DNA of 35,093 bases from a virus. Lineage: Duplodnaviria; Heunggongvirae; Uroviricota; Caudoviricetes. Below, in pieces: positions 76 through 34,816 of the stretch (positions are counted from its first letter, which is position 1; every line of letters begins with the position of its first letter). The translations under genes were made by a program, and so were the position numbers. The notes beneath the pieces are model-generated. The model did no database searches and was not told where the DNA came from. It saw only the letters and a program-made list of their open reading frames with translations. The stretch is from IMG/VR virus record IMGVR_UViG_2529293015_000001; one strand, written 5' to 3'.

Positions 76-2163
76 ATGTCTGTGGAATTTACTGCGGATA
101 GCAATAGTGCTCGACAGCGTGAAACGGTAACTGCTCCGTCATTAGGCGCGGTAGAGGAAATCTCTGCTGGTGTATATCGCTCTGTTCTGGCTGCTGGTTC
201 GCAGGCTGGGACGGTACGTGTAACTGCAAAAGTTCAGGGAAAAACATTTACTCTCAGTATTAAGCAAACAGCAGCAACAGAACCTGATTCTGAGGTCAGT
301 GCTGCTTTAACCGCTGCACCAGCAGAACAGGTAGTTGGTTACAATATCAATCTACAACTGGCAGTGAAGGATTCACAAGGAAATGCAATCACTGGTGATA
401 ACACTCTGAGCTTTTATGCTCTTAACCAGGCAGAAGGAGTCGAGTTTGGGACTGTAACGGAAAAAGACGGTGTCTATAGCGCGACAGTAACTTCAAAACG
501 AGCTGGTAAGATTACTATCGGTGTTAAATCTGATAGTCATGATTTCTCAGGTGTTAAGAAAGAAATCACCTTTATTGAGGACCGGCAGCAGGTTACATTC
601 TCTCAGTTTGAAGCCAGCCAAAATAATGCATTGGCTGATGGAATACAGAGAAATATGGTAACTGTAAGCCTTGCGGACCGTTTCGGCAATGTTGTTCCTG
701 GTTATGCTGTTACGTTGTCCTTACCTGCGGGGGTAACTCAAGTTGGTGGTGAACATGCAGTGTCAACTGACGAAAACGGAAATGCTGTTTTTGCATTAAT
801 AAGCTCCACTCCAGGTTCTTACGTGATTAAAGCTCACGCTGGGCCTCAGGTATCTACTGAGTTAACTGTAACCTTTGCATCAAATATGAGCGGAGCTTCA
901 CTGTCACTGATGCCTGAAAACAGTAGCTTAATTTCGAATATTCCTGCTAATGGTAAAGATGCTGCGGTATTGAATGTTCAGCTAACAAATAATACTAATG
1001 CGTCGGTTAATGGACAGAAGGTTCAGCTCATCACCTCATCTGAAGGGTTGTCTGTGCCGACAAATATCGTGACTGATTCAACAGGACATGTTTCTGTACC
1101 AGTTACAACGGTTAGAGCTGGTGAGTACACGGTAACTGCACGGGTGACTGATGGTTCTAATAGTGTGGAATCTGGAAGCGTTAAGTTAACTTTTGTGCCA
1201 GATATTGCTTCCGCAGAACTCACTATGAGTGTATCAAAACAGCAGATTGTGGCCGATAGCAGTGAAAGTGCAACAGTAGACATTCAGTTGGTTGACGCCA
1301 ATAACAATACGTTTACCGGTGATGTAAATTTAACGATCACCCCATCGACGGGAGCATCATTGACCAGCAGTAAACTGCAGCTGGATGCTTATGGAAAGGC
1401 ATCAACGCAGTTCACTGCATCGAAATCGGGCCAGTACACAATTCAGGCCGAGCATGTTCAGGATGGGAAACGCATAACGGCGAGCCAAAATATTGATGCC
1501 GTGACGGATGTGAAGGAGGCTGTGTTGGAGATCGCATCATCTGTATCTTCTGCTGTTGTGAGCGATTCCAACAATCTTACATTTACGTTGCATCTGAAAA
1601 ATACGTCAGGCGAAGCATTAAGTGGTCGAGCACTGAATATTAAGACTTCTGGACCGTCCAAATATGGTGCTTTGGTGGTTGATAAAACCACAGTAACGAC
1701 TGATGAGCGCGGCCAGGCTACGGTAAGCGTACATGGTCGAACGGCTGGTTCGTATAAATTAACGGCGACCTTAAACGAACTTGGTAGTGATGTTAGCGCG
1801 GTGAAATCATTCTCCCTGTACGCTGATGAAGCAAATGGGGTTCTGAGTCTTGAAAAAGACTATGGTTATGAGGTTAATGACGGCTCTCCAACAGGTATTT
1901 ATGCTCGATTTGTCGATCATTTTGGAAACCCATTATCTGGTACGGTTGAGTTTTCTGCTGGTAGTGAAGATAGTCCAGACTCTCAACACGTCAAAATGGA
2001 ACCTGCTACAGTAACGTTAAGCTCGACAGGTTACGCTGCCTCTGAGTTCAGCACCTATGAAAGTGGTTATCACTGGATTAAGGCCAAAATAACGAATAGC
2101 AAAAATACATATGAGAAAACAATAAGGACTTATGTTGTAAAACTACCTGAAAAGGATAGTTAA
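76..2163 (+). CDS. Ig-like (Big_1-type) repeat adhesin of the invasin/intimin passenger kind; no signal peptide or beta-barrel visible, so probably a 3' fragment or frameshifted gene
   Basis: 695-aa ORF made of about seven tandem ~95-aa T/S/V/G-rich repeats typical of bacterial Ig-like domains; in-frame stops at 13-21 just upstream; no convincing SD before ATG 76; GC lower than phage core. Confidence 0.5.
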   Translation: MSVEFTADSNSARQRETVTAPSLGAVEEISAGVYRSVLAAGSQAGTVRVTAKVQGKTFTLSIKQTAATEPDSEVSAALTAAPAEQVVGYNINLQLAVKDSQGNAITGDNTLSFYALNQAEGVEFGTVTEKDGVYSATVTSKRAGKITIGVKSDSHDFSGVKKEITFIEDRQQVTFSQFEASQNNALADGIQRNMVTVSLADRFGNVVPGYAVTLSLPAGVTQVGGEHAVSTDENGNAVFALISSTPGSYVIKAHAGPQVSTELTVTFASNMSGASLSLMPENSSLISNIPANGKDAAVLNVQLTNNTNASVNGQKVQLITSSEGLSVPTNIVTDSTGHVSVPVTTVRAGEYTVTARVTDGSNSVESGSVKLTFVPDIASAELTMSVSKQQIVADSSESATVDIQLVDANNNTFTGDVNLTITPSTGASLTSSKLQLDAYGKASTQFTASKSGQYTIQAEHVQDGKRITASQNIDAVTDVKEAVLEIASSVSSAVVSDSNNLTFTLHLKNTSGEALSGRALNIKTSGPSKYGALVVDKTTVTTDERGQATVSVHGRTAGSYKLTATLNELGSDVSAVKSFSLYADEANGVLSLEKDYGYEVNDGSPTGIYARFVDHFGNPLSGTVEFSAGSEDSPDSQHVKMEPATVTLSSTGYAASEFSTYESGYHWIKAKITNSKNTYEKTIRTYVVKLPEKDS

Positions 2164-2175
2164 CAAAATTGAATG

Positions 2176-2201
2176 GGGAGGGCTTAGCCCTCCCTCTTTT
2201 T
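2176..2201. terminator. Bidirectional intrinsic terminator between convergent genes
   Basis: Perfect 8-bp GC-rich stem GGGAGGGC/GCCCTCCC (2176-2183, 2187-2194), loop TTA, then TCTTTTT; A/T run on the other side as well. Confidence 0.7.
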
Positions 2202-3243
2202 ACAGGTTAGCGTTTGGGTTTTGTTGTTGGGGAGCTGTTTTTATAGGCGCTCCCAGGTTTTTAGTAAACCACTCAACGACTCTGTTTATAATAATTGGCT
2301 GATACCATGTCTTATCGCCATGCTCGGCCCCTTCTACCAGAACGTACTCAGCGTTATCGCTGTTCTTCTTCAACATCCTGAATAGTTTGGCGCTTTGCTC
2401 CGGTGAAACCAGAGTGTCTTTGCTACCATGCATAATAAGAAATGGAGGTTTTACTCCTTTCATATGTCCGATTGGACTGGCGTTTAGCGCTTTTTCTTTT
2501 GACGCTGTGATGGGGGCTCCCGCAAAATTTCTGAATGCAGGGCCATTGATCATTAAGGCTTCGGTTACGGCAGGAGAGCGATGAACCTCCTGAACTGATT
2601 CAGGGAACCCCTCGCCAATATTCAACAAGTCAGAAATTCCATAAAGTGTGGCAACTGCCTGAACATCTGAGGATTGCTGAAGAAAGTCACCTTTATCAAA
2701 GGTTTTGTCACCATTTGTAGTTCCCATCATCTGGGCAAGCCATCCACCGGCAGAGTCACCCAGAACTCCGATTCTTTGAGGATCAATCCCATAATCGCTG
2801 GCATGCTCTCTCAGGTAACGTATTGCAGCTTTTCCATCCTCAACTGGTGCTGGAAATGTATCAGGAATTGTTCGGTATTCTACAGCGGCCACAACAAAAC
2901 CAGCTTCTGCCAGAGCCATTCTCATTTCAATAAATTTGTCATGTTCAGAAGACATGAATCCGCCGCCGGGATAATAAATAATGGCTGGTTTTAAATCATT
3001 TGTTCGCGGGACAAGAACTGACATGTGAAGCTGTCTGACAGAACGAGTTCCTTTTATCTGGGAGTAAACAACATCACCAATGAGATCGACCTGGTTTCTG
3101 GTCGGTGAAACACTAATGATATCTGCGCCCGGGGTGTAACCAGGAAGATTAGTCTGGACAGGTGTTGCACAACTCCCGACCGACATGGCCATTGACATAC
3201 CATACAATAGTGTTGCAGATGATAATATCTTGTTAATTTTCAT
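2200..3243 (-). CDS. Lipoprotein alpha/beta-hydrolase, hormone-sensitive-lipase-type esterase/lipase
   Basis: 347 aa; N-terminal signal with lipobox-like VGSC; HGG-like oxyanion motif YYPGGGF; nucleophile elbow GDSAG; later Asp and His consistent with a catalytic triad. Confidence 0.65.
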   Translation of the reverse strand: MKINKILSSATLLYGMSMAMSVGSCATPVQTNLPGYTPGADIISVSPTRNQVDLIGDVVYSQIKGTRSVRQLHMSVLVPRTNDLKPAIIYYPGGGFMSSEHDKFIEMRMALAEAGFVVAAVEYRTIPDTFPAPVEDGKAAIRYLREHASDYGIDPQRIGVLGDSAGGWLAQMMGTTNGDKTFDKGDFLQQSSDVQAVATLYGISDLLNIGEGFPESVQEVHRSPAVTEALMINGPAFRNFAGAPITASKEKALNASPIGHMKGVKPPFLIMHGSKDTLVSPEQSAKLFRMLKKNSDNAEYVLVEGAEHGDKTWYQPIIINRVVEWFTKNLGAPIKTAPQQQNPNANL

Positions 3244-5094: not shown

Positions 5095-5798
5095 ATACCC
5101 AATATTTACAGTATGTCCGCGAGCAACTCATTGTGGCTACCGCTGATTTGAGCGGAGCAACGAAAGGCCAGCTTGAAGCCTGGCTGGAGCATGCACAATT
5201 TGATACTGGTACATATAAACGAAAGAAGCCGCGCATTCTGGATGAGGTAACGGGCAAGACGATTACGCTGGATAATCCGCCGATCCCGGGAAAACAATCG
5301 CTGGCGAAAGGCTCATCAATTGCCCTGGTCAGCCCGGTTGAGTTTTCGACATCATCATGGCGGCGGGCGGTTCTGTCTCTTGAAGAACATCATAAAGTCT
5401 GGTTGTTGTGGTGTTATGGCGGAAACATTTACTGGGAGCATCAGATCGCGATAACGCAGTGGGCATGGAACGAGTTTAAGGCTCTGTTAGGTACAAGAAA
5501 AATTGCCAGTAAAACACTGGAACGCTTAAAGAAGTTGATCTGGCTGGCTGCACAGGATGTGAAGAACGAACTGGCCGGGCGTAAGACCTATGAATACCAG
5601 GCGCTGGCGGCGCTGCTTGGTGTGGCTAAATCCACTTGGACGGGGACTTATCTTCCCTACTGGTTGATGATGTGGGATGTATATGTCCGTCTGGATAACG
5701 AAGCATTGTGTCATGCGTCCCTGACTCGTTCGCAACAGAGGTCGACAAACTACCATCAAAATATTGCAAAAACGAACCGGAATCGCTATATTTTATGA
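5091..5798 (+). CDS. Late-gene antiterminator Q-like protein
   Basis: 235 aa; SD AAAGGAG 8 nt upstream; sits after rusA/ylcG and before the lysis cassette, the canonical Q slot; resembles long Qin/phage-82-type Q rather than lambda Q or 127-aa DLP12 QuuD. Confidence 0.55.
   Translation: MNTQYLQYVREQLIVATADLSGATKGQLEAWLEHAQFDTGTYKRKKPRILDEVTGKTITLDNPPIPGKQSLAKGSSIALVSPVEFSTSSWRRAVLSLEEHHKVWLLWCYGGNIYWEHQIAITQWAWNEFKALLGTRKIASKTLERLKKLIWLAAQDVKNELAGRKTYEYQALAALLGVAKSTWTGTYLPYWLMMWDVYVRLDNEALCHASLTRSQQRSTNYHQNIAKTNRNRYIL
5764..5792 (+). promoter_or_regulatory. Candidate sigma70 late promoter (pR'-like), possibly with qut site
   Basis: TTGCAA (5764-5769), 17-bp spacer, TATATT (5787-5792), overlapping the last Q codons. 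Confidence 0.35.
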
Positions 5799-5847
5799 AA
5801 TCCTGATATTATGCGAATATTTTATTCGCTGGTAGTAAACCAGCTTT

Positions 5848-5878
5848 CCCCAAGGAGCTACTCCTTGGGGTTTTTATT
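5848..5878 (+). terminator. Strong intrinsic terminator, candidate tR' ending a ~75-nt leader RNA
   Basis: Perfect 10-bp stem CCCCAAGGAG/CTCCTTGGGG with loop CTA followed by TTTTTATTTATT. Confidence 0.6.
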
Positions 5879-6036
5879 TATTATTGCAACGACATTTATA
5901 ATACCGTTGCTTTATTGTAACGGTGTTCCCTGCTGTAGCCTTATTTTTTTGTGGGTTTTTTCTTGCTGAAGTTTGGCAAAGTGAACTTTGTATGCATATA
6001 CTTCATCCAAATATTCAGTAATATCAGGTGGATGAT

Positions 6037-6771
6037 ATGGCAATTACATGTTCAGTTATATTGGTTCTGGAGTCGTTTGATGTGCCTTTGGGAAAGAATA
6101 GAGTGTTTCTGGAAAAAGGCTCATCTGTACTTGTTGACTATGGAACCAGAGATTTTTTTCTGACATATCCGGAAAGAGTTATAGTAGCGGATTTTGGTGG
6201 TGAATTTATTAGCCGCTATTTGAAAGCTAATAATCTAAGGGGTTTTTCTGATTGTAGGGAATATCCATCTTATATAAAAACAAATTTTGCTGATTTCAGT
6301 CTAATTAAGGGGTTAATTAGTTGGGCTAATCACTGCACTGAATACATTGAAGTTTTAGATGAGTCTATTGCATTTACATGCCTATCCGCATTTGCGTCGG
6401 AAAAACAATTTACAATATTCCTGTTTGGATGTCTGAAAAGTGTAGGGGCTAAAGTTAAAGCGATTATTCATACGGATATGTCTGCACCCTGGCGTCTTAA
6501 AGATATATCTTCAAGATTATATCTCAGCGAAAGTTTGCTAAAGAGGAAATTGAGAGAAGAAGGTCTGTCATTCAGTAAAATTATACTTGATGAGAGGATG
6601 CGGATGGCTGAATATTTACTCAGCACTCGTTGCTATTCTATTCGCAAAGTAGCCGAGGTCTGTGGTTATGTAAGTGTCTCGTACTTTGTTCATGTATTTA
6701 GATGTTATTTTGGTATTTCTCCAAACCAGTATTCACAGAAGAACTCAGAAAGTGAGATTATCACTCACTAG
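6037..6771 (+). CDS. AraC-family transcriptional regulator of the AppY/YdeO/GadX-like subfamily; moron
   Basis: C-terminal twin helix-turn-helix typical of AraC/XylS (…IRKVAEVCGYVSVSYFVHVFRCYFGISPNQY); N-terminus M-x3-CSV parallels the appY-like ORF at 34362; AT-rich island; ATG 6037 with AGGTG upstream (GTG 6028 alternative). Confidence 0.75.
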   Translation: MAITCSVILVLESFDVPLGKNRVFLEKGSSVLVDYGTRDFFLTYPERVIVADFGGEFISRYLKANNLRGFSDCREYPSYIKTNFADFSLIKGLISWANHCTEYIEVLDESIAFTCLSAFASEKQFTIFLFGCLKSVGAKVKAIIHTDMSAPWRLKDISSRLYLSESLLKRKLREEGLSFSKIILDERMRMAEYLLSTRCYSIRKVAEVCGYVSVSYFVHVFRCYFGISPNQYSQKNSESEIITH

Positions 6772-6951
6772 AGCGGCTGTACGGTCTGCTGCTGATAGCT
6801 TTTACGGACCGTAGTAATACACCCAGAATGGACGCCAGCATTATTGCTGGTTTTTTGTAAAGTAAATCCGACAATTTCTTTAGCTATTTTATCTTCCTTT
6901 CTTTTTATCTTCGGTCTGATTATGCCATCCGTTCTGTACGGAGGTGAGGCT

Positions 6952-7167
6952 ATGAAATCCATGGACAAGTTAACAACGGGGGTCGCTTATGGCACATCTG
7001 CGGGTAATGCAGGTTTTTGGGCATTACAGCTACTTGATAAAGTGACCCCATCGCAGTGGGCTGCAATAGGTGTGCTGGGTAGTCTGATATTTGGTTTGCT
7101 GACGTACCTGACAAACCTGTATTTCAAGATAAAAGAGGACCGTCGCAAGGCGGCGCGGGGAGAGTAA
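6952..7167 (+). CDS. essD: Phage-21-type pinholin (S21/EssD family), dual-start
   Basis: 71 aa; [26 protein letters not shown]...[14 protein letters not shown] close to recalled S21; MKSM dual start typical of antiholin/holin pair; SD GGAGGTG; the 6844 ORF-track start is an upstream extension. Confidence 0.8.
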
Positions 7168-7171
7168 TTCA

Positions 7172-7516
7172 ATGATTAAAAGCTATGAGTTGATTGTGAA
7201 AGGGATCCGCAATTTTGAGAATAAAGTTGCGGTAACTGTAGCATTACGGGACAAAAAACGCTTTGACGGTGAAATTTTTGACCTGGACATCTCGCTGGAC
7301 CGTGTTGAAGGTGCCGCGCTGGAGTTTTATGAGGCAGCAGCCAGAAGGAGCATCAGACAGGTCTTCCTGGATGTTGCTGCCGGGTTATGTGAAGGGGATG
7401 AGCAGTCGCCGGAAAAGCGCCCCGTAATTTTAGAGGCGCAGAATGTGTGGATAACCTACAAAGGAAAGCTACCAGGAAGAATTACTGGTTCCCTGAAGAC
7501 TCCACCGAAATGGTAA
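7172..7516 (+). CDS. Hypothetical 114-aa protein between holin and endolysin; possibly YdfR-like (DUF1327)
   Basis: ATG 5 nt after holin stop; same position as ydfR between essQ and rrrQ in prophage Qin; family assignment from memory only. Confidence 0.4.
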   Translation: MIKSYELIVKGIRNFENKVAVTVALRDKKRFDGEIFDLDISLDRVEGAALEFYEAAARRSIRQVFLDVAAGLCEGDEQSPEKRPVILEAQNVWITYKGKLPGRITGSLKTPPKW

Positions 7517-7754
7517 TTTTACCAGCATATTTTTCTTCCAGTAATGCCGCCAGCCACTTAAAAGAATTTTGTTGTTCCTGGGACCATTTGGGGTTGCGTG
7601 ATTCAAGCAGGAGCGATGCCAGTGTTGGTTGCATTTGTTCTCTGGGAATTGATAAGGCCAGATATGAAAATGCAACAGTGAGGGCATTTACATCATCCCG
7701 AAGCCTGGAAATGCAGTCGAGCAACTCCTGTAGAGAAATGGTGTTATTGTCCAT
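7482..7754 (-). CDS. Hypothetical 90-aa protein, antisense to the late operon, convergent with and overlapping the previous ORF
   Basis: ATG (rc of 7752-7754) preceded by a strong SD AAGAGGA with 6-nt spacing; protein-like composition; no family recognised. Confidence 0.35.
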   Translation of the reverse strand: MDNNTISLQELLDCISRLRDDVNALTVAFSYLALSIPREQMQPTLASLLLESRNPKWSQEQQNSFKWLAALLEEKYAGKITISVESSGNQ

Positions 7755-18483: not shown

Positions 18484-18875
18484 AACATACTGAACTCCGT
18501 GCAGCCGTACTGGATGCACTGGAGAAGCATGACACCGGGGCGACGTTTTTTGATGGTCGCCCCGCTGTTTTTGATGAGGCGGATTTTCCGGCAGTTGCCG
18601 TTTATCTCACCGGCGCTGAATACACGGGCGAAGAGCTGGACAGCGATACCTGGCAGGCGGAGCTGCATATCGAAGTTTTCCTGCCTGCTCAGGTGCCGGA
18701 TTCAGAGCTGGATGCGTGGATGGAGTCCCGGATTTATCCGGTGATGAGCGATATCCCGGCACTGTCAGATTTGATCACCAGTATGGTGGCCAGCGGCTAT
18801 GACTACCGGCGCGACGATGATGCGGGCCTGTGGAGTTCAGCCGATCTGACTTATGTCATTACCTATGAAATGTGA
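18480..18875 (+). CDS. U: Tail terminator protein U
   Basis: 131 aa; ATGA overlap with Z. Confidence 0.85.
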
Positions 18876-18882
18876 GGACGCT

Positions 18883-19623
18883 ATGCCTGTACCAAATCCT
18901 ACAATGCCGGTGAAAGGTGCCGGGACCACCCTGTGGGTTTATAAGGGGAGCGGTGACCCTTATGCGAATCCGCTTTCAGACGTTGACTGGTCGCGTCTGG
19001 CAAAAGTTAAAGACCTGACGCCCGGCGAACTGACCGCTGAGTCCTATGACGACAGCTATCTCGATGATGAAGATGCAGACTGGACTGCGACCGGGCAGGG
19101 GCAGAAATCTGCCGGAGATACCAGCTTCACGCTGGCGTGGATGCCCGGAGAGCAGGGGCAGCAGGCGCTGCTGGCGTGGTTTAATGAAGGTGATACCCGT
19201 GCCTATAAAATCCGCTTCCCGAACGGCACGGTCGATGTGTTCCGTGGCTGGGTCAGCAGTATCGGTAAGGCGGTGACGGCGAAGGAAGTGATCACCCGCA
19301 CGGTGAAAGTCACCAATGTGGGACGTCCGTCGATGGCAGAAGATCGCAGCACGGTAACAGCGGCAACCGGCATGACCGTGACGCCTGCCAGCACCTCGGT
19401 GGTGAAAGGGCAGAGCACCACGCTGACCGTGGCCTTCCAGCCGGAGGGCGTAACCGACAAGAGCTTTCGTGCGGTGTCTGCGGATAAAACAAAAGCCACC
19501 GTGTCGGTCAGTGGTATGACCATCACCGTGAACGGCGTTGCTGCAGGCAAGGTCAACATTCCGGTTGTATCCGGTAATGGTGAGTTTGCTGCGGTTGCAG
19601 AAATTACCGTCACCGCCAGTTAA
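18883..19623 (+). CDS. V: Major tail tube protein V with C-terminal Ig-like (Big_2) domain
   Basis: 246 aa [31 protein letters not shown]...; C-terminal T/V/S-rich Ig-like segment; SD GAGGA. Confidence 0.9.
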
Positions 19624-29622: not shown

Positions 29623-29632
29623 TGGAGTGGAT

Positions 29633-32026
29633 ATGGCAGCAGTAAAAATCTCAGGTGTGCTGAAAGATGGTGCGGGAAAACCAATACAGAACTGCACTAT
29701 TCAACTGAAGGCAAAGCGTAACAGCACCACGGTACTGGTGAACACGGTGGCCTCTGAAAATCCGGATGAAGCCGGGCGTTACAGCATGGATGTTGAGTAT
29801 GGCCAGTACAGCGTCATCCTGCTGGTTGAAGGTTTTCCGCCTTCACATGCCGGGACCATTACCGTCTATGAAGGCTCCAGACCAGGTACGCTGAATGATT
29901 TTCTCGGTGCCATGACGGAAGATGATGTCATGCCGGAGGCATTGCGTCGTTTTGAGGAAATGGTGGAAGAAGCGGCACGCAACGCTGAAGCCGCCTCTCA
30001 GAGCGCAGCGGCGGCAAAGAAATCAGAAACTGCAGCGGCATCATCGAAGAACGCGGCGAAAACCTCAGAAACGAATGCAGCTAATAGTGCACAGGCGGCA
30101 GCGGCCTCACAGACTGCATCAGCAAACTCCGCGACAGCAGCCAAAAAATCAGAAACCAACGCGAAAAATAGCGAGACAGCCGCAAAGACGAGCGAAACCA
30201 ACGCAAAGTCCAGCCAGACGGCAGCGAAGACCAGCGAAACGAATGCTAAAGCCAGTGAAACTGCGGCAAAAAACAGCCAGGTTGCAGCAGCCCAAAGCGA
30301 GAGCGCGGCAGCCGGTTCTGCGACTTCAGCAGCTGGATCAGCAACTGCTGCGGCTAACAACCAGAAAGCTGCGAAGACGAGTGAAACTAACGCAAAGTCC
30401 AGCCAGACGGCAGCGAAGACCAGCGAAACGAATGCCAAAGCCAGTGAAACTGCGGCGAAAAGCAGTCAGGATGCAGCAGCTGAAAGCGAGAGTGCCGCAG
30501 CCAGTTCTGCAAGTGCGGCGGCTTCTTCTGCCACTGCATCAGCCAACAGTCAAAAAGCTGCAAAAACCAGTGAAACCAACGCAAAGGCGAGCGAGACTGC
30601 GGCGGATAACTCAGCGAAAGCATCGGCAGCAAGCCAGACGGCAGCTAAAGAAAGCGAAGACGCAGCCAGGGAGTACGCAAGCCAGGCTGCGGAGCCGTAT
30701 AAACAAGTTTTGCAGCCGCTTCCAGATGTGTGGATACCGTTTAACGATTCTATGGATATGATCACCGGATTTGCGCCGGGATATAAAAAAATTACTGTTG
30801 GTGCGGATGTTGTCACTATGCCTAGTGACAAGATTGTTAGTTTTACCCGTGCATCAACCGCTACATATATTAATAAATCTGGTAGGCTTAGTGTCGCTGC
30901 AATTGATGAACCACGATTTGAAAAAAATGGTTTATTGATTGAAGGTCAACGAACTAACTATTTTGTTAAATCTAACACCCCCGCCGAATGGACTAGCACA
31001 AGCAATATTGATAAAAGCAATAATGGCGTTGATGAATTTGGTTTTTCATTTGCAAAAATGAAAACTAAGGAAAATATGACGGGTCAATCATCCGCTCTTA
31101 GTTTGCATACATGCAGCGCATCCCGTGGTGTTGATGTTAGTGGTGATAATAAGTTTTGCACTGTTTCTTGTCGTGTTAAGGCTCCTGATGGCCTCCGTTG
31201 CCGTTTACGCTTTGAAAAATACGACGGATCAGCTTACACCTTTTTGGGTGATGCTTATTTGACCTTCGGTAAAACTTTGACGATCAAAAAAACTGGCGGT
31301 GCTGCTAACCGTATAACGGCAAATGCTATTAAAGACCCGGTTACTGGTTGGGTCTTCTATGAAGCAACGATAGAAGCGGTTGAAGGGGAATCCTTGATTG
31401 GCGCAATGATTCAGTATGCGCCGAAAGAGGGTGGGAAGACAGAAGCTGATGATTATATCTATCTTGCCACACCGCAATTCGAAAATGGTAGTTGTGCGTC
31501 ATCTTTTATTATTACTACAACAGCCCCTTCTACCCGCGCTAGTGATATGGTTAATATTCCTATTACCAATAATTTGGGATCTATTCCGTTGAGTTGCTTA
31601 GTTGAGGTGCATCGCAATTGGAATATTTCTCCTAGCTCTGCTCCTCGAATTGTCCACACAATTGGGGTCGCTTCAAATGACGAGCAAATGATTTTGGCGT
31701 TTAGGAATCCAACAAGTGGTAATGTCGAACCGTTGCCATATTGTCAATTCGGCGTTAAACAATCATACACTCCGGTTGAAGTAAAAACTGGTGGTTTGAT
31801 GGTTGCTGGATTTGTTTGTAAATCCAATTATGAATTTAAATGTGTTGTGAATGGTACATTTGCATCAACTCAAACGACAACATGGAATAATCCGGGCGCA
31901 GCGTCACAGATTAGAATGGGTGGATCGTCTGGTGGCGGAGAGCGGCATCTGTTCGGTCATTTAAGAAATCTCCGTCTTTGGCATAAAGCGTTAACTGATG
32001 CACAAATGGGGGAGTCAGTAGAATGA
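29633..32026 (+). CDS. stf: Side tail fiber Stf: lambda-like N-terminal anchor, Ala/Ser/Thr-rich repeat shaft, foreign lectin-like (LamG/concanavalin-like) distal domain
   Basis: First ~120 aa (MAAVKISGVLKDGAGKPIQNCTIQLKAKRNSTT...) match recalled lambda Stf; low-GC C-terminal half from ~30700; C-terminal ...HLRNLRLWHKALTDAQMGE resembles the end of LamG-type jelly rolls; ATG 29633 with GGAG upstream. Confidence 0.8.
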   Translation: MAAVKISGVLKDGAGKPIQNCTIQLKAKRNSTTVLVNTVASENPDEAGRYSMDVEYGQYSVILLVEGFPPSHAGTITVYEGSRPGTLNDFLGAMTEDDVMPEALRRFEEMVEEAARNAEAASQSAAAAKKSETAAASSKNAAKTSETNAANSAQAAAASQTASANSATAAKKSETNAKNSETAAKTSETNAKSSQTAAKTSETNAKASETAAKNSQVAAAQSESAAAGSATSAAGSATAAANNQKAAKTSETNAKSSQTAAKTSETNAKASETAAKSSQDAAAESESAAASSASAAASSATASANSQKAAKTSETNAKASETAADNSAKASAASQTAAKESEDAAREYASQAAEPYKQVLQPLPDVWIPFNDSMDMITGFAPGYKKITVGADVVTMPSDKIVSFTRASTATYINKSGRLSVAAIDEPRFEKNGLLIEGQRTNYFVKSNTPAEWTSTSNIDKSNNGVDEFGFSFAKMKTKENMTGQSSALSLHTCSASRGVDVSGDNKFCTVSCRVKAPDGLRCRLRFEKYDGSAYTFLGDAYLTFGKTLTIKKTGGAANRITANAIKDPVTGWVFYEATIEAVEGESLIGAMIQYAPKEGGKTEADDYIYLATPQFENGSCASSFIITTTAPSTRASDMVNIPITNNLGSIPLSCLVEVHRNWNISPSSAPRIVHTIGVASNDEQMILAFRNPTSGNVEPLPYCQFGVKQSYTPVEVKTGGLMVAGFVCKSNYEFKCVVNGTFASTQTTTWNNPGAASQIRMGGSSGGGERHLFGHLRNLRLWHKALTDAQMGESVE
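30182..30630 (+). repeat. In-frame tandem repeats of 189 bp (63 aa) in the stf shaft, about 2.4 copies plus degenerate copies upstream
   Basis: Units starting 30182, 30371, 30560 are near-identical (GC[AG]AAGAC[CG]AG[CT]GAAAC...); encode AAKTSETNAKSSQTAAKTSETNAKASETAAK... Confidence 0.85.
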
Positions 32027-33378: not shown

Positions 33379-33388
33379 ATTGGGTAGG

Positions 33389-33688
33389 ATGAAAATGGAT
33401 ATAACACCTTTCCTTCATGCGCTTTGTGCTGTGGCTGCGCAGGTACTGATTGGCCTTTTTACCGGAAACTGGGCTTACGGGGCGATAGCCGGTTGTACGT
33501 TCTTCATTGCGCGCGAACACACCCAGGCAGAATATCGCTGGATCGAAATGTTCGGGCATGGCAAGCGAATGAATATGCCGTGGTGGGGCGGTTTTGATCC
33601 GCGCGCATGGGATGTGGCAAGCCTGATGGATTTTGCTGTGCCGGTGGTGGCGTGTCTGCTGGTCTGGCTGTTGGTTAATCGTGGGTGA
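33389..33688 (+). CDS. Small hydrophobic inner-membrane protein (two or three predicted TM helices); moron
   Basis: About 99 aa; hydrophobic stretches AVAAQVLIGLF, AIAGCTFFIA, AVPVVACLLVWLLV; higher GC than flanks; ATG 33389 or 33395. Confidence 0.4.
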   Translation: MKMDITPFLHALCAVAAQVLIGLFTGNWAYGAIAGCTFFIAREHTQAEYRWIEMFGHGKRMNMPWWGGFDPRAWDVASLMDFAVPVVACLLVWLLVNRG

Positions 33689-34361: not shown

Positions 34362-34739
34362 ATGGATTATGTTTGCTCCGTAGTTTTCATCTGTCAATCA
34401 TTTGATTTAATTATAAACAGGAGAGTTATCTCGTTCAAAAAAAATTCATTGTTTATTGTAAGCGACAAAATTAGAAGAGAGTTACCAGTATGCCCCTCTA
34501 AACTAAGAATTGTTGATATAGATAAGAAAACATGTTTATCCTTTTTTATCGACGTGAATAATGAGTTGCCTGGCAAATTTACTCTTGATAAGAATGGCTA
34601 TATTGCTGAAGAGGAACCTCCATTATCGCTTGTTTTTTCTCTGTTTGAAGGGATTAAAATAGCAGACTCACACTCCCTTTGGTTAAAAGAAAGACTATGT
34701 ACTGATGAATCCCCTAATGATTTTGGTAAAAATCATTAA
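34362..34739 (+). pseudogene. appY: appY-like AraC-family regulator truncated after about codon 113 by IS10; the last 12 codons are read from the IS10 end
   Basis: [30 protein letters not shown]... recalled as the AppY N-terminus (DLP12); homology ends where the IS10 outside end begins (34702); the AraC helix-turn-helix part is missing. Confidence 0.6.
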
Positions 34740-34747
34740 GTTAAGGT

Positions 34748-34816
34748 GGATACACATCTTGTCATATGATCAAATGGTTTCGCGAAAAATCAATAATCAG
34801 ACAACAAGATGTGCGA
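34748..34816 (-). ncRNA. IS10 RNA-OUT antisense RNA (position estimated by offset from the IS10 end)
   Basis: Known IS10 organisation: ~69-nt RNA-OUT from pOUT, complementary to the 5' end of the transposase mRNA; coordinates are the IS10 positions about 47-115 mapped onto the window, not an independent prediction. Confidence 0.4.

Follow-up and report, generated by a model that had tools for sequence, protein, structure and literature searches.

Background

The prophage-borne regulators AppY, PatE and PsrA/B are already known to plug into the networks of Escherichia coli that govern acid resistance and the enterocyte effacement locus (LEE). PatE activates gadE, gadBC and hdeAB (PMC10877973), AppY activates gadE and the genes of acid-resistance system 2 (AR2) (PMC10057817), and activation of acid-resistance genes of the gadE/hdeA type is a trait of PatE, PsrB and AppY alike (PMC10877973, PMC10057817). 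PatE is the product of Z0321, for which the description given is that of putative regulator of prophage CP-933H (O-island 8) of enterohaemorrhagic E. coli O157:H7 (PMC10877973, PMC2907692). Expression of Z0321 depends on RpoS, with an expression ratio of 6 (PMC2907692), and that of ECs0287 rises at entry into stationary phase (PMC2241611). In the Shiga toxin (Stx) phages, the late promoter pR′ is constitutive and its transcription is terminated in lysogens, such that the cargo behind it is dependent on the antiterminator Q (PMC7547250). The present work examines an AraC/XylS-family regulator gene of the PatE clade, which lies at positions 6037-6771 of a 35,093-bp stretch of DNA, between the Q and holin genes. 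The stretch (hereafter, the window) is the whole of contig CADHNQ010000008.1 from the public E. coli assembly GCA_902849155.1, and nearly all of it is one lambda/DLP12-like E. coli prophage. The gene probably encodes a PatE-clade activator, carried as a self-contained moron, with dual expression (from its own promoter in the lysogen and by Q-dependent read-through after induction) and with acid-resistance genes of the host as its targets.

The regulator and its relatives

Profile searches bear out the initial annotation, made from the sequence alone, in which this gene was read as an AraC-family regulator. Both Pfam families of the AraC helix-turn-helix are found, HTH_AraC at 1.3e-14 in two stretches (54.3 bits, cut-off 26.6) and HTH_18 at 4.4e-13 over residues 158-234 (49.8 bits, cut-off 33.6), and the protein exhibits the C-terminal domain of about 100 residues with two helix-turn-helix motifs that is characteristic of the AraC/XylS family. 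A GTG at position 6028, which the listing of open reading frames (ORFs) gives as the start, was rejected, since this codon lies inside the Shine-Dalgarno sequence AGGTGGA and public gene calls take the ATG at 6037. The protein also matches PHROG 1450 (phrog_1450) at 1.5e-89, a group of unknown function in that database.

A mean predicted local distance difference test (pLDDT) score of 75.8 was obtained for an AlphaFold model based on 14 members of the family. Confidence is high for the C-terminal domain of the model (82-96), which superposes on the DNA-binding domain of GadX (3MKL) with a template modelling (TM) score of 0.89-0.90 and a root mean square deviation of 1.1-1.4 Å; the same domain is matched by sequence at 1.1e-22. 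Over the full chain, Foldseek matches CsvR, Rns and ToxT at E values of ~1e-10, with a TM score of just 0.40, and a sequence match to CsvR spans residues 23-232. The N-terminal domain is predicted by the model to be beta-rich, with pLDDT values of 65-76 that fall below 50 at residues 71-86.

Alignment with AppY, YdeO, GadX and PatE places the regulator in the PatE clade. It is 83.6% identical over 244 residues to ECs_0287 of strain Sakai and 84.0% identical to the homologue in enterotoxigenic E. coli (ETEC) H10407, followed by the 243/244-residue E. coli groups P0010, P0011 and P0016 (52-55%), by YdeO and GadW (34%) and by K-12 AppY (30% over the full length, E = 3e-38). ECs_0287 is the sole such regulator within the Sakai prophage Sp1, which we take to be the Sakai counterpart of EDL933 CP-933H, and from this position we infer that ECs_0287 is PatE.

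The description of the gene as AppY/YdeO/GadX-like, and as a paralogue of a disrupted appY-like gene at the right end of the prophage, stands, with a refinement. The regulator does belong to the same AraC group, and the second gene was correctly read as an AraC gene inactivated by IS10: it is appY, of which codons 1-113 are present before the cut at 34701/34702. The closest relative, however, is PatE and not AppY, and the 30% identity between the two regulators of this prophage marks them as old members of one subfamily rather than recent duplicates; it likewise excludes the regulator as an AppY orthologue. The best NCBIfam models are those of YdeO (142.1 bits) and GadX (105 bits), and both assignments were also excluded, the former falling short of the cut-off of 348 for the YdeO equivalog (NF007407) and the latter, aligned over residues 98-237 only, of the cut-off of 500 for the GadX equivalog (NF007432). 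The chromosomal AR2 regulators YdeO, GadX and GadW thus resemble the phage-borne protein in their profiles, in the fold of 3MKL and in the first recognition helix, yet differ from it in their chromosomal location and in an identity of 34-38%. This helix, SESLLKRKL, is invariant across the clade and almost so in YdeO, AppY and GadW.

Gene annotations in E. coli include an identical protein (EHN91291.1 and others), which occurs on at least 13 contigs. On 13 contigs with the identical protein the order Q, regulator, holin is constant, and the ORF is intact on all contigs read. Compared with the gene at the PatE locus, the ratio of nonsynonymous to synonymous substitution rates (dN/dS) is 0.17 for the whole gene and 0.15 and 0.21 for its two halves. 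Purifying selection thus acts on the gene, which, given its recurrence on these contigs, is real rather than a chance ORF. Nine sequences make up its 90% identity cluster, and the named ones are all labelled E. coli. A 95% identical allele occupies the same place between Q and holin in phage L007, the packaging and head module of which is different. Among 5,426 complete E. coli genomes, no copy of the regulator better than ~85% was found. A peptide-pattern scan of species-representative genomes gave as its sole match an unrelated helix-turn-helix protein of Parabacteroides (23% identity), and is uninformative as to distribution.

The cargo slot and its signals

The initial annotation placed the gene in an AT-rich island between a Q-like gene and the holin, the classic cargo site of lambdoid phages, downstream of a candidate late promoter and terminator and perhaps behind a promoter of its own, and the sequence agrees with this description throughout. 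The GC content is 36.5% in the coding sequence and 37.3% in the island (5881-6951), against 48.7% in Q and 47.9% from holin to lysozyme. A PF06323 Q lies upstream and a P21-type holin downstream, and pR′, tR′, the regulator and the holin (from 6952) follow one another on the plus strand (Table 1), the arrangement expected of Q-dependent late cargo. Like stx in the Stx phages and nmpC in DLP12 (order quuD, nmpC, essD), the cargo thus fills the interval between pR′-tR′ and the holin; unlike the toxin and the porin encoded there, its product is a transcription factor, and the gene has its own candidate promoter and terminator. No tRNA genes, which are common in the Stx-phage version of the slot, are found in the interval between Q and holin.

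As read from its sequence, the regulator is a self-contained cargo gene, or moron in the Hendrix/Juhala sense, of this DLP12/lambda-like prophage with the full anatomy of one. In L013, whose nin region is the same and whose Q is 78% identical, the Q and holin genes are ~320 bp apart with no gene between them, so that the regulator is an extra gene between genes that are adjacent in a related phage. Its base composition deviates from flanks of 48-49% GC, and candidate signals of its own are found on both sides. The best match to a promoter in the region is TTGGCA-18-TATACT, which stands thirty-five bases ahead of the ATG; its -35 to -10 block differs from the patE loci by 1-2 bases in the alignment, and TATACTT is invariant in the subfamilies that are 52-55% identical, across which the Shine-Dalgarno sequence is also kept. 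Downstream, the core of the putative terminator, ACGCCAG..AT.AT.GC.GG..TTT, is kept at the junction of AraC gene and holin in the 243-residue subfamilies.

The unit formed by pR′, leader and tR′ is by its layout a standard lambdoid one. The arrangement TTGCAA-17-TATATT likewise follows Q in the cargo-less relatives L013 and L014, and the leader of L013 is homologous to that of the window (alignment score 45, against a null maximum of 27). The leader RNA is predicted to fold into three hairpins at -28.7 kcal/mol (z = -4.95), a stability attained by 0 of 200 shuffled sequences, and a terminator scan gives the tR′ stem 10 pairs, 7 of them G-C. An Rfam scan of the interval, covering the pR′ leader and the 3′ flank, returned just far-sub-threshold matches and no known RNA family.

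The leader that ends at tR′ (5799-5877, plus strand) is also of note as an RNA in its own right, about 80 nt long and highly structured, which should be made constitutively in lysogens. Its origin is analogous to that of lambda 6S RNA and of StxS, a regulatory small RNA of Stx phages (PMC7547250).

Relationship to the patE loci

The patE-type loci examined were five, in Sakai Sp1, in ETEC H10407 and in the phages mEp332, PhiR70_1 and ev099. The regulator resembles patE across the whole gene, with ~85% nucleotide identity accompanying the identity of the proteins, and extends this resemblance into the regulatory region: the -35 to -10 block is almost identical, the Shine-Dalgarno sequence is shared, and the upstream 250 nt align at 72-74%. 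Both are low-GC prophage cargo. In length the regulator falls 3 residues short of the PatE-locus protein, from which it differs at 40 positions. The location is also different, for whereas the regulator lies between Q and holin, the patE copies lie between tail-fibre/pin genes and the attachment site or integrase, after the tail-fibre genes at 5/5 loci. This is the slot that appY occupies in DLP12, and a remnant of an IS3-family insertion sequence is found 3′ of the patE copies. In the 5,426 complete E. coli genomes, no holin is found joined to a gene of the patE type.

The window and the patE loci (5/5) share DNA homology that starts at 5787, at the -10 element of pR′, continues at 72-74% identity through leader and tR′ and extends as far as the stop codon (blastn E values of 3e-31 to 9e-38). 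Aligned by itself, the leader region scores 37, the highest null score in 1,000 shuffles being 28. A decayed late promoter -10, leader and terminator are thus observed directly upstream of the patE promoter region at all five loci (at 18860-18960 of the Sakai locus, L008, and in L001, L015, L016 and L017). The tR′ stem is mutated there and the segment folds like shuffled sequence (z = +0.45 versus -4.95 in the window). No trace of a Q remnant was found upstream of the patE loci, where the homology begins exactly at the pR′ -10.

The decayed pR′ -10, leader and tR′ at the patE loci, together with the intact leader of the window and its homology to the leader of cargo-less phages, suggest that the PatE lineage was first located behind pR′-tR′. 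The simplest reading would be that a segment starting at the pR′ -10 later moved to the region between tail fibres and attachment site. The decayed late leader upstream of patE would then be a simple account of the source of both the gene and its promoter region. A larger proposal can be put forward only tentatively, and is rather less likely to be right than wrong: that the PatE lineage began as late-operon cargo, a state kept in the present prophage, and that patE of enterohaemorrhagic E. coli (EHEC) retains a fossil leader. Two inputs, a sigma-S-type promoter and Q antitermination, would then converge on the regulator, and induction would switch on, in the induced subpopulation, a circuit that controls glutamate decarboxylase (GAD) and LEE genes of the host.

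Related genes in the same slot

The 243/244-residue AraC genes (P0010, P0011, P0014 and P0016) share with the regulator the slot, the TATACTT element, the Shine-Dalgarno sequence, the downstream terminator and the junction with the holin. P0010 lies 204 bp after a lambda-type Q, and P0011, P0014 and P0016 stand immediately before a P21-type holin. The P0011 type is found in 1,033 of the 5,426 complete E. coli genomes (~19%), such that AraC genes are common in the slot that the initial annotation had pointed to, and the P0016 type occurs at 99% identity in the isolated lambdoid phages Lambda_2E9, ev087 and 1H12. Unlike the regulator, several of these genes stand behind a Q of another family (PF06530, PF03589) and have extra cargo beside them in the slot, namely genes for a lipocalin and a DUF1722 protein. 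They are uncharacterised, and mostly annotated as hypothetical or as helix-turn-helix proteins. An AraC regulator between Q and holin is therefore a common, little-annotated arrangement, and what is particular to the present locus is that its occupant comes from the PatE branch. AppY of DLP12, another prophage-borne AraC/XylS regulator of the same subfamily, is a distant relative, and its gene lies at the right end of the prophage, past the tail-fibre genes, rather than in the late operon.

Stretches of EDL933 were inspected in the search for psrA and psrB. In 1,625,001-1,675,000 (L026, a prophage at potB/potC which, going by reviews, ought to be O-island 50 and to carry psrA, z1789), tblastn of the resequenced genome gave no AraC homologue, and none is listed in the annotation of 1,675,001-1,700,000. 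EDL933 does carry a 237-residue AraC-like gene, WP_000301797, 39% identical to the regulator, in the Q-to-holin region of a prophage next to ydfJ (L033 9274-9987, which is EDL933 1,905,274-1,905,987). It is situated between a Q-like DUF1133 gene and tRNA-Ile, tRNA-Arg, TerB, nanS-p and the holin. This gene may be psrB. Relatives of the P0025 type, also 39% identical, were set aside, as they sit in a non-phage island beside insertion sequences.

Proposed function and alternative explanations

In the lysogen, constitutive transcription from pR′ would yield just a short leader ending at tR′, and the regulator would be transcribed from its own promoter, TTGGCA-18-TATACTT, the -10 element of which is similar to those used by sigma-S. 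TATACTT resembles the sigma-S -10 consensus, and such an element would fit what has been reported for patE, namely RpoS dependence and induction in stationary phase. The terminator at 6834-6858 would bar the transcript of this promoter from the holin. After induction, RNA polymerase modified by Q would pass tR′, the regulator and the terminator into the lysis genes, and the regulator would thereby join the late transcript. The protein would most likely bind AT-rich sites at host promoters (gadE, hdeAB) and raise acid resistance as PatE, PsrB and AppY do. By homology to these three, its likely targets would be gadE, hdeAB and related AR2 genes, with an indirect repression of LEE where LEE is present.

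Several points weigh against this proposal. The gad and hde loci of the host lie outside the window. Six promoter-like sites were found where 4.3 are expected by chance, and the promoter and terminator calls are consensus matches only. Position -13 of the regulator's own promoter is an A, and not the C typical of sigma-S promoters. Differences from the protein of the PatE locus affect 16% of the residues and include V218T, H219Y and C223R in the second recognition helix, so that the targets or the specificity could differ from those of PatE. The confidence of the N-terminal model is moderate (pLDDT 65-76) and therefore permits no statement on a ligand.

The regulator might instead serve the phage, by tuning the timing of lysis, the expression of late genes or the decision between lysis and lysogeny. 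Such a role would explain why genes of the clade are so often found directly upstream of a P21-type holin: the gene is inside the late transcription unit, and the subfamilies that are 52-55% identical hold their position immediately before the holin, with both the junction and the terminator conserved. It is nevertheless unlikely, because the nearest relatives, those of the patE type, are located between tail fibres and attachment site, far from the lysis genes, even in the plaque-formers mEp332, PhiR70_1 and ev099. The regulons documented for PatE, PsrB and AppY are those of the host (PMC10877973, PMC10057817). The interval between Q and holin is moreover empty in related phages, so that the gene is dispensable for lysis, and the putative terminator would insulate the regulator from the holin.

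Even less probable is the suggestion that the regulator was kept or acquired to compensate for the appY gene that IS10 has inactivated in the same prophage. It draws on the overlap that has been published between the regulons of AppY and PatE, at gadE and AR2 genes (PMC10057817, PMC10877973), rather than on anything in the window sequence. The two proteins also belong to the same AraC subfamily and have the first recognition helix in common. At merely 30% identity, the two genes are not recent duplicates; the 95% identical allele that sits in the same slot on the other backbone, that of L007, shows the presence of the gene to be independent of the appY of this prophage; and IS10 insertions are typically recent, whereas the divergence of the regulator from patE corresponds to a synonymous distance (dS) of ~0.5. 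The least probable of these explanations is that the gene now has no function, being cargo that is either silent or in decay. AT-rich DNA acquired horizontally by E. coli is commonly silenced by H-NS. Against this explanation, every copy read has an intact ORF, both domains give dN/dS values of 0.15-0.21, and conservation extends to the promoter, the Shine-Dalgarno sequence and the terminator. The reading of the gene as a PatE-like regulator of the host, with effects on host regulons predicted from homology, is thus preferred.

Other features of the prophage

The coordinates of the features discussed are collected in Table 1. From 5′ to 3′, the window contains an early/nin region, Q, the lysis cassette, lambda-type terminase, head and tail genes, lom with tail fibres, and appY. 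The nin region comprises a NinB-like gene with a weak match (21.6 bits, the Pfam cut-off being 23.8), ninE, ybcO, rusA and ylcG, and the lysis cassette that follows the regulator consists of the P21-type holin, DUF1327/YdfR, lysozyme, Rz/Rz1 and bor.

Table 1. Positions in the window of the regulator, its signals and the associated prophage features
Feature	Position	Strand	Basis
Late-gene antiterminator Q, 235 residues	5091-5798	+	Pfam PF06323 Phage_antiter_Q, 1.3e-87
Candidate late promoter pR′ (TTGCAA 5764-5769, 17-nt spacer, TATATT 5787-5792)	5764-5792	+	Consensus scan; overlaps the 3′ end of Q; putative function
Late leader and terminator tR′	5799-5880	+	-10-like TGATATT 5804-5810; stem 5848-5870, then T run
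Candidate own promoter of the regulator (TTGGCA, 18-nt spacer, TATACT, then T)	5973-6002	+	Consensus scan, 10/12 matches
Shine-Dalgarno sequence AGGTGGA	6026-6032	+	Direct reading; 4 nt 5′ of the ATG
AraC/XylS-family regulator, 244 residues, PatE clade	6037-6771 (ATG to TAG)	+	Pfam HTH_AraC and HTH_18; identity to Sakai ECs_0287
Putative intrinsic terminator between regulator and holin	6834-6858	+	GCCAGCATTATTGCTGGT then TTTTTGT; ~100 nt before the holin
P21-type class II holin, dual start (MKSM)	6952-7167	+	Pfam PF04971, 4.2e-34; gene calls on public contigs concur
appY fragment, codons 1-113	34362-34701	+	Residues 1-113 100% identical to K-12 AppY; appY annotated at the corresponding place in E. 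coli genomes
IS10 end cutting appY, running to the contig end	34702-35093		Terminus CTGATGAATCCCCTAATGATTTTGG; Rfam RNA-OUT RF00240

The Q protein is 78% identical to that of E. coli L9. A mosaic joint is observed within its gene, where the 94% homology to other E. coli Q genes ends at window position 5608/5666, and for 5608-5880 (the C-terminal third of Q, pR′ and tR′) no match above ~85% was found in the 5,426 complete E. coli genomes. This suggests that the C-terminal third of Q and pR′/tR′ may have been swapped as one module, a Q specificity together with its promoter site.

At the right end, the terminal sequence CTGATGAATCCCCTAATGATTTTGG is presumably that of IS10, an identity confirmed by the match to Rfam RNA-OUT RF00240 at 34747-34816 on the minus strand (98.8 bits). 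The contig stops inside IS10, and the 3′ part of appY and the end of the prophage are thus out of view.

The prophage carries further genes of interest. In the early region, upstream of the ninB-like gene, an invasin/intimin-like adhesin (76-2163, plus strand) has five Big_1/Invasin_D3 repeats and is truncated by the start of the contig; on contig L002 the same adhesin has 1,303 residues and an IAT_beta domain. Adjoining it on the opposite strand is an esterase of the BD-FAE/alpha-beta-hydrolase type (2200-3243, minus strand). Adhesin and esterase are further cargo, possibly related to virulence. A 90-residue antisense ORF (7482-7754, minus strand) lies between ydfR/DUF1327 and lysozyme and overlaps the 3′ end of ydfR; it is gene-called on every contig read and belongs to PHROG 2411 (1.1e-56), of unknown function there, and to no Pfam family. 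The tail-fibre gene at 29627-32026 (plus strand) encodes a prophage tail-fibre N-terminal domain and a long run rich in Ala, Ser and Thr with imperfect repeats of the KTSETNAK type; a lectin-like domain at the C terminus is matched only weakly, below threshold, and the AT skew reaches 0.61 at 30001-30500. Between the last tail-fibre gene and appY, a 102-residue ORF (33380-33688, plus strand) matches PHROG 1443 (4.5e-59), again of unknown function there and with no Pfam family, and may be another small cargo gene.

Conclusions

The present analysis does not overturn current understanding. What it adds is a member of the PatE clade inside the late operon, at the place where stx sits in Stx phages. 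The regulator would lend itself, as a natural case, to the question whether induction of a prophage itself feeds the stress regulons of the host. Beyond this locus, the AraC genes found between Q and holin in roughly one in five complete E. coli genomes constitute a sizeable, unexplored set of potential regulators.

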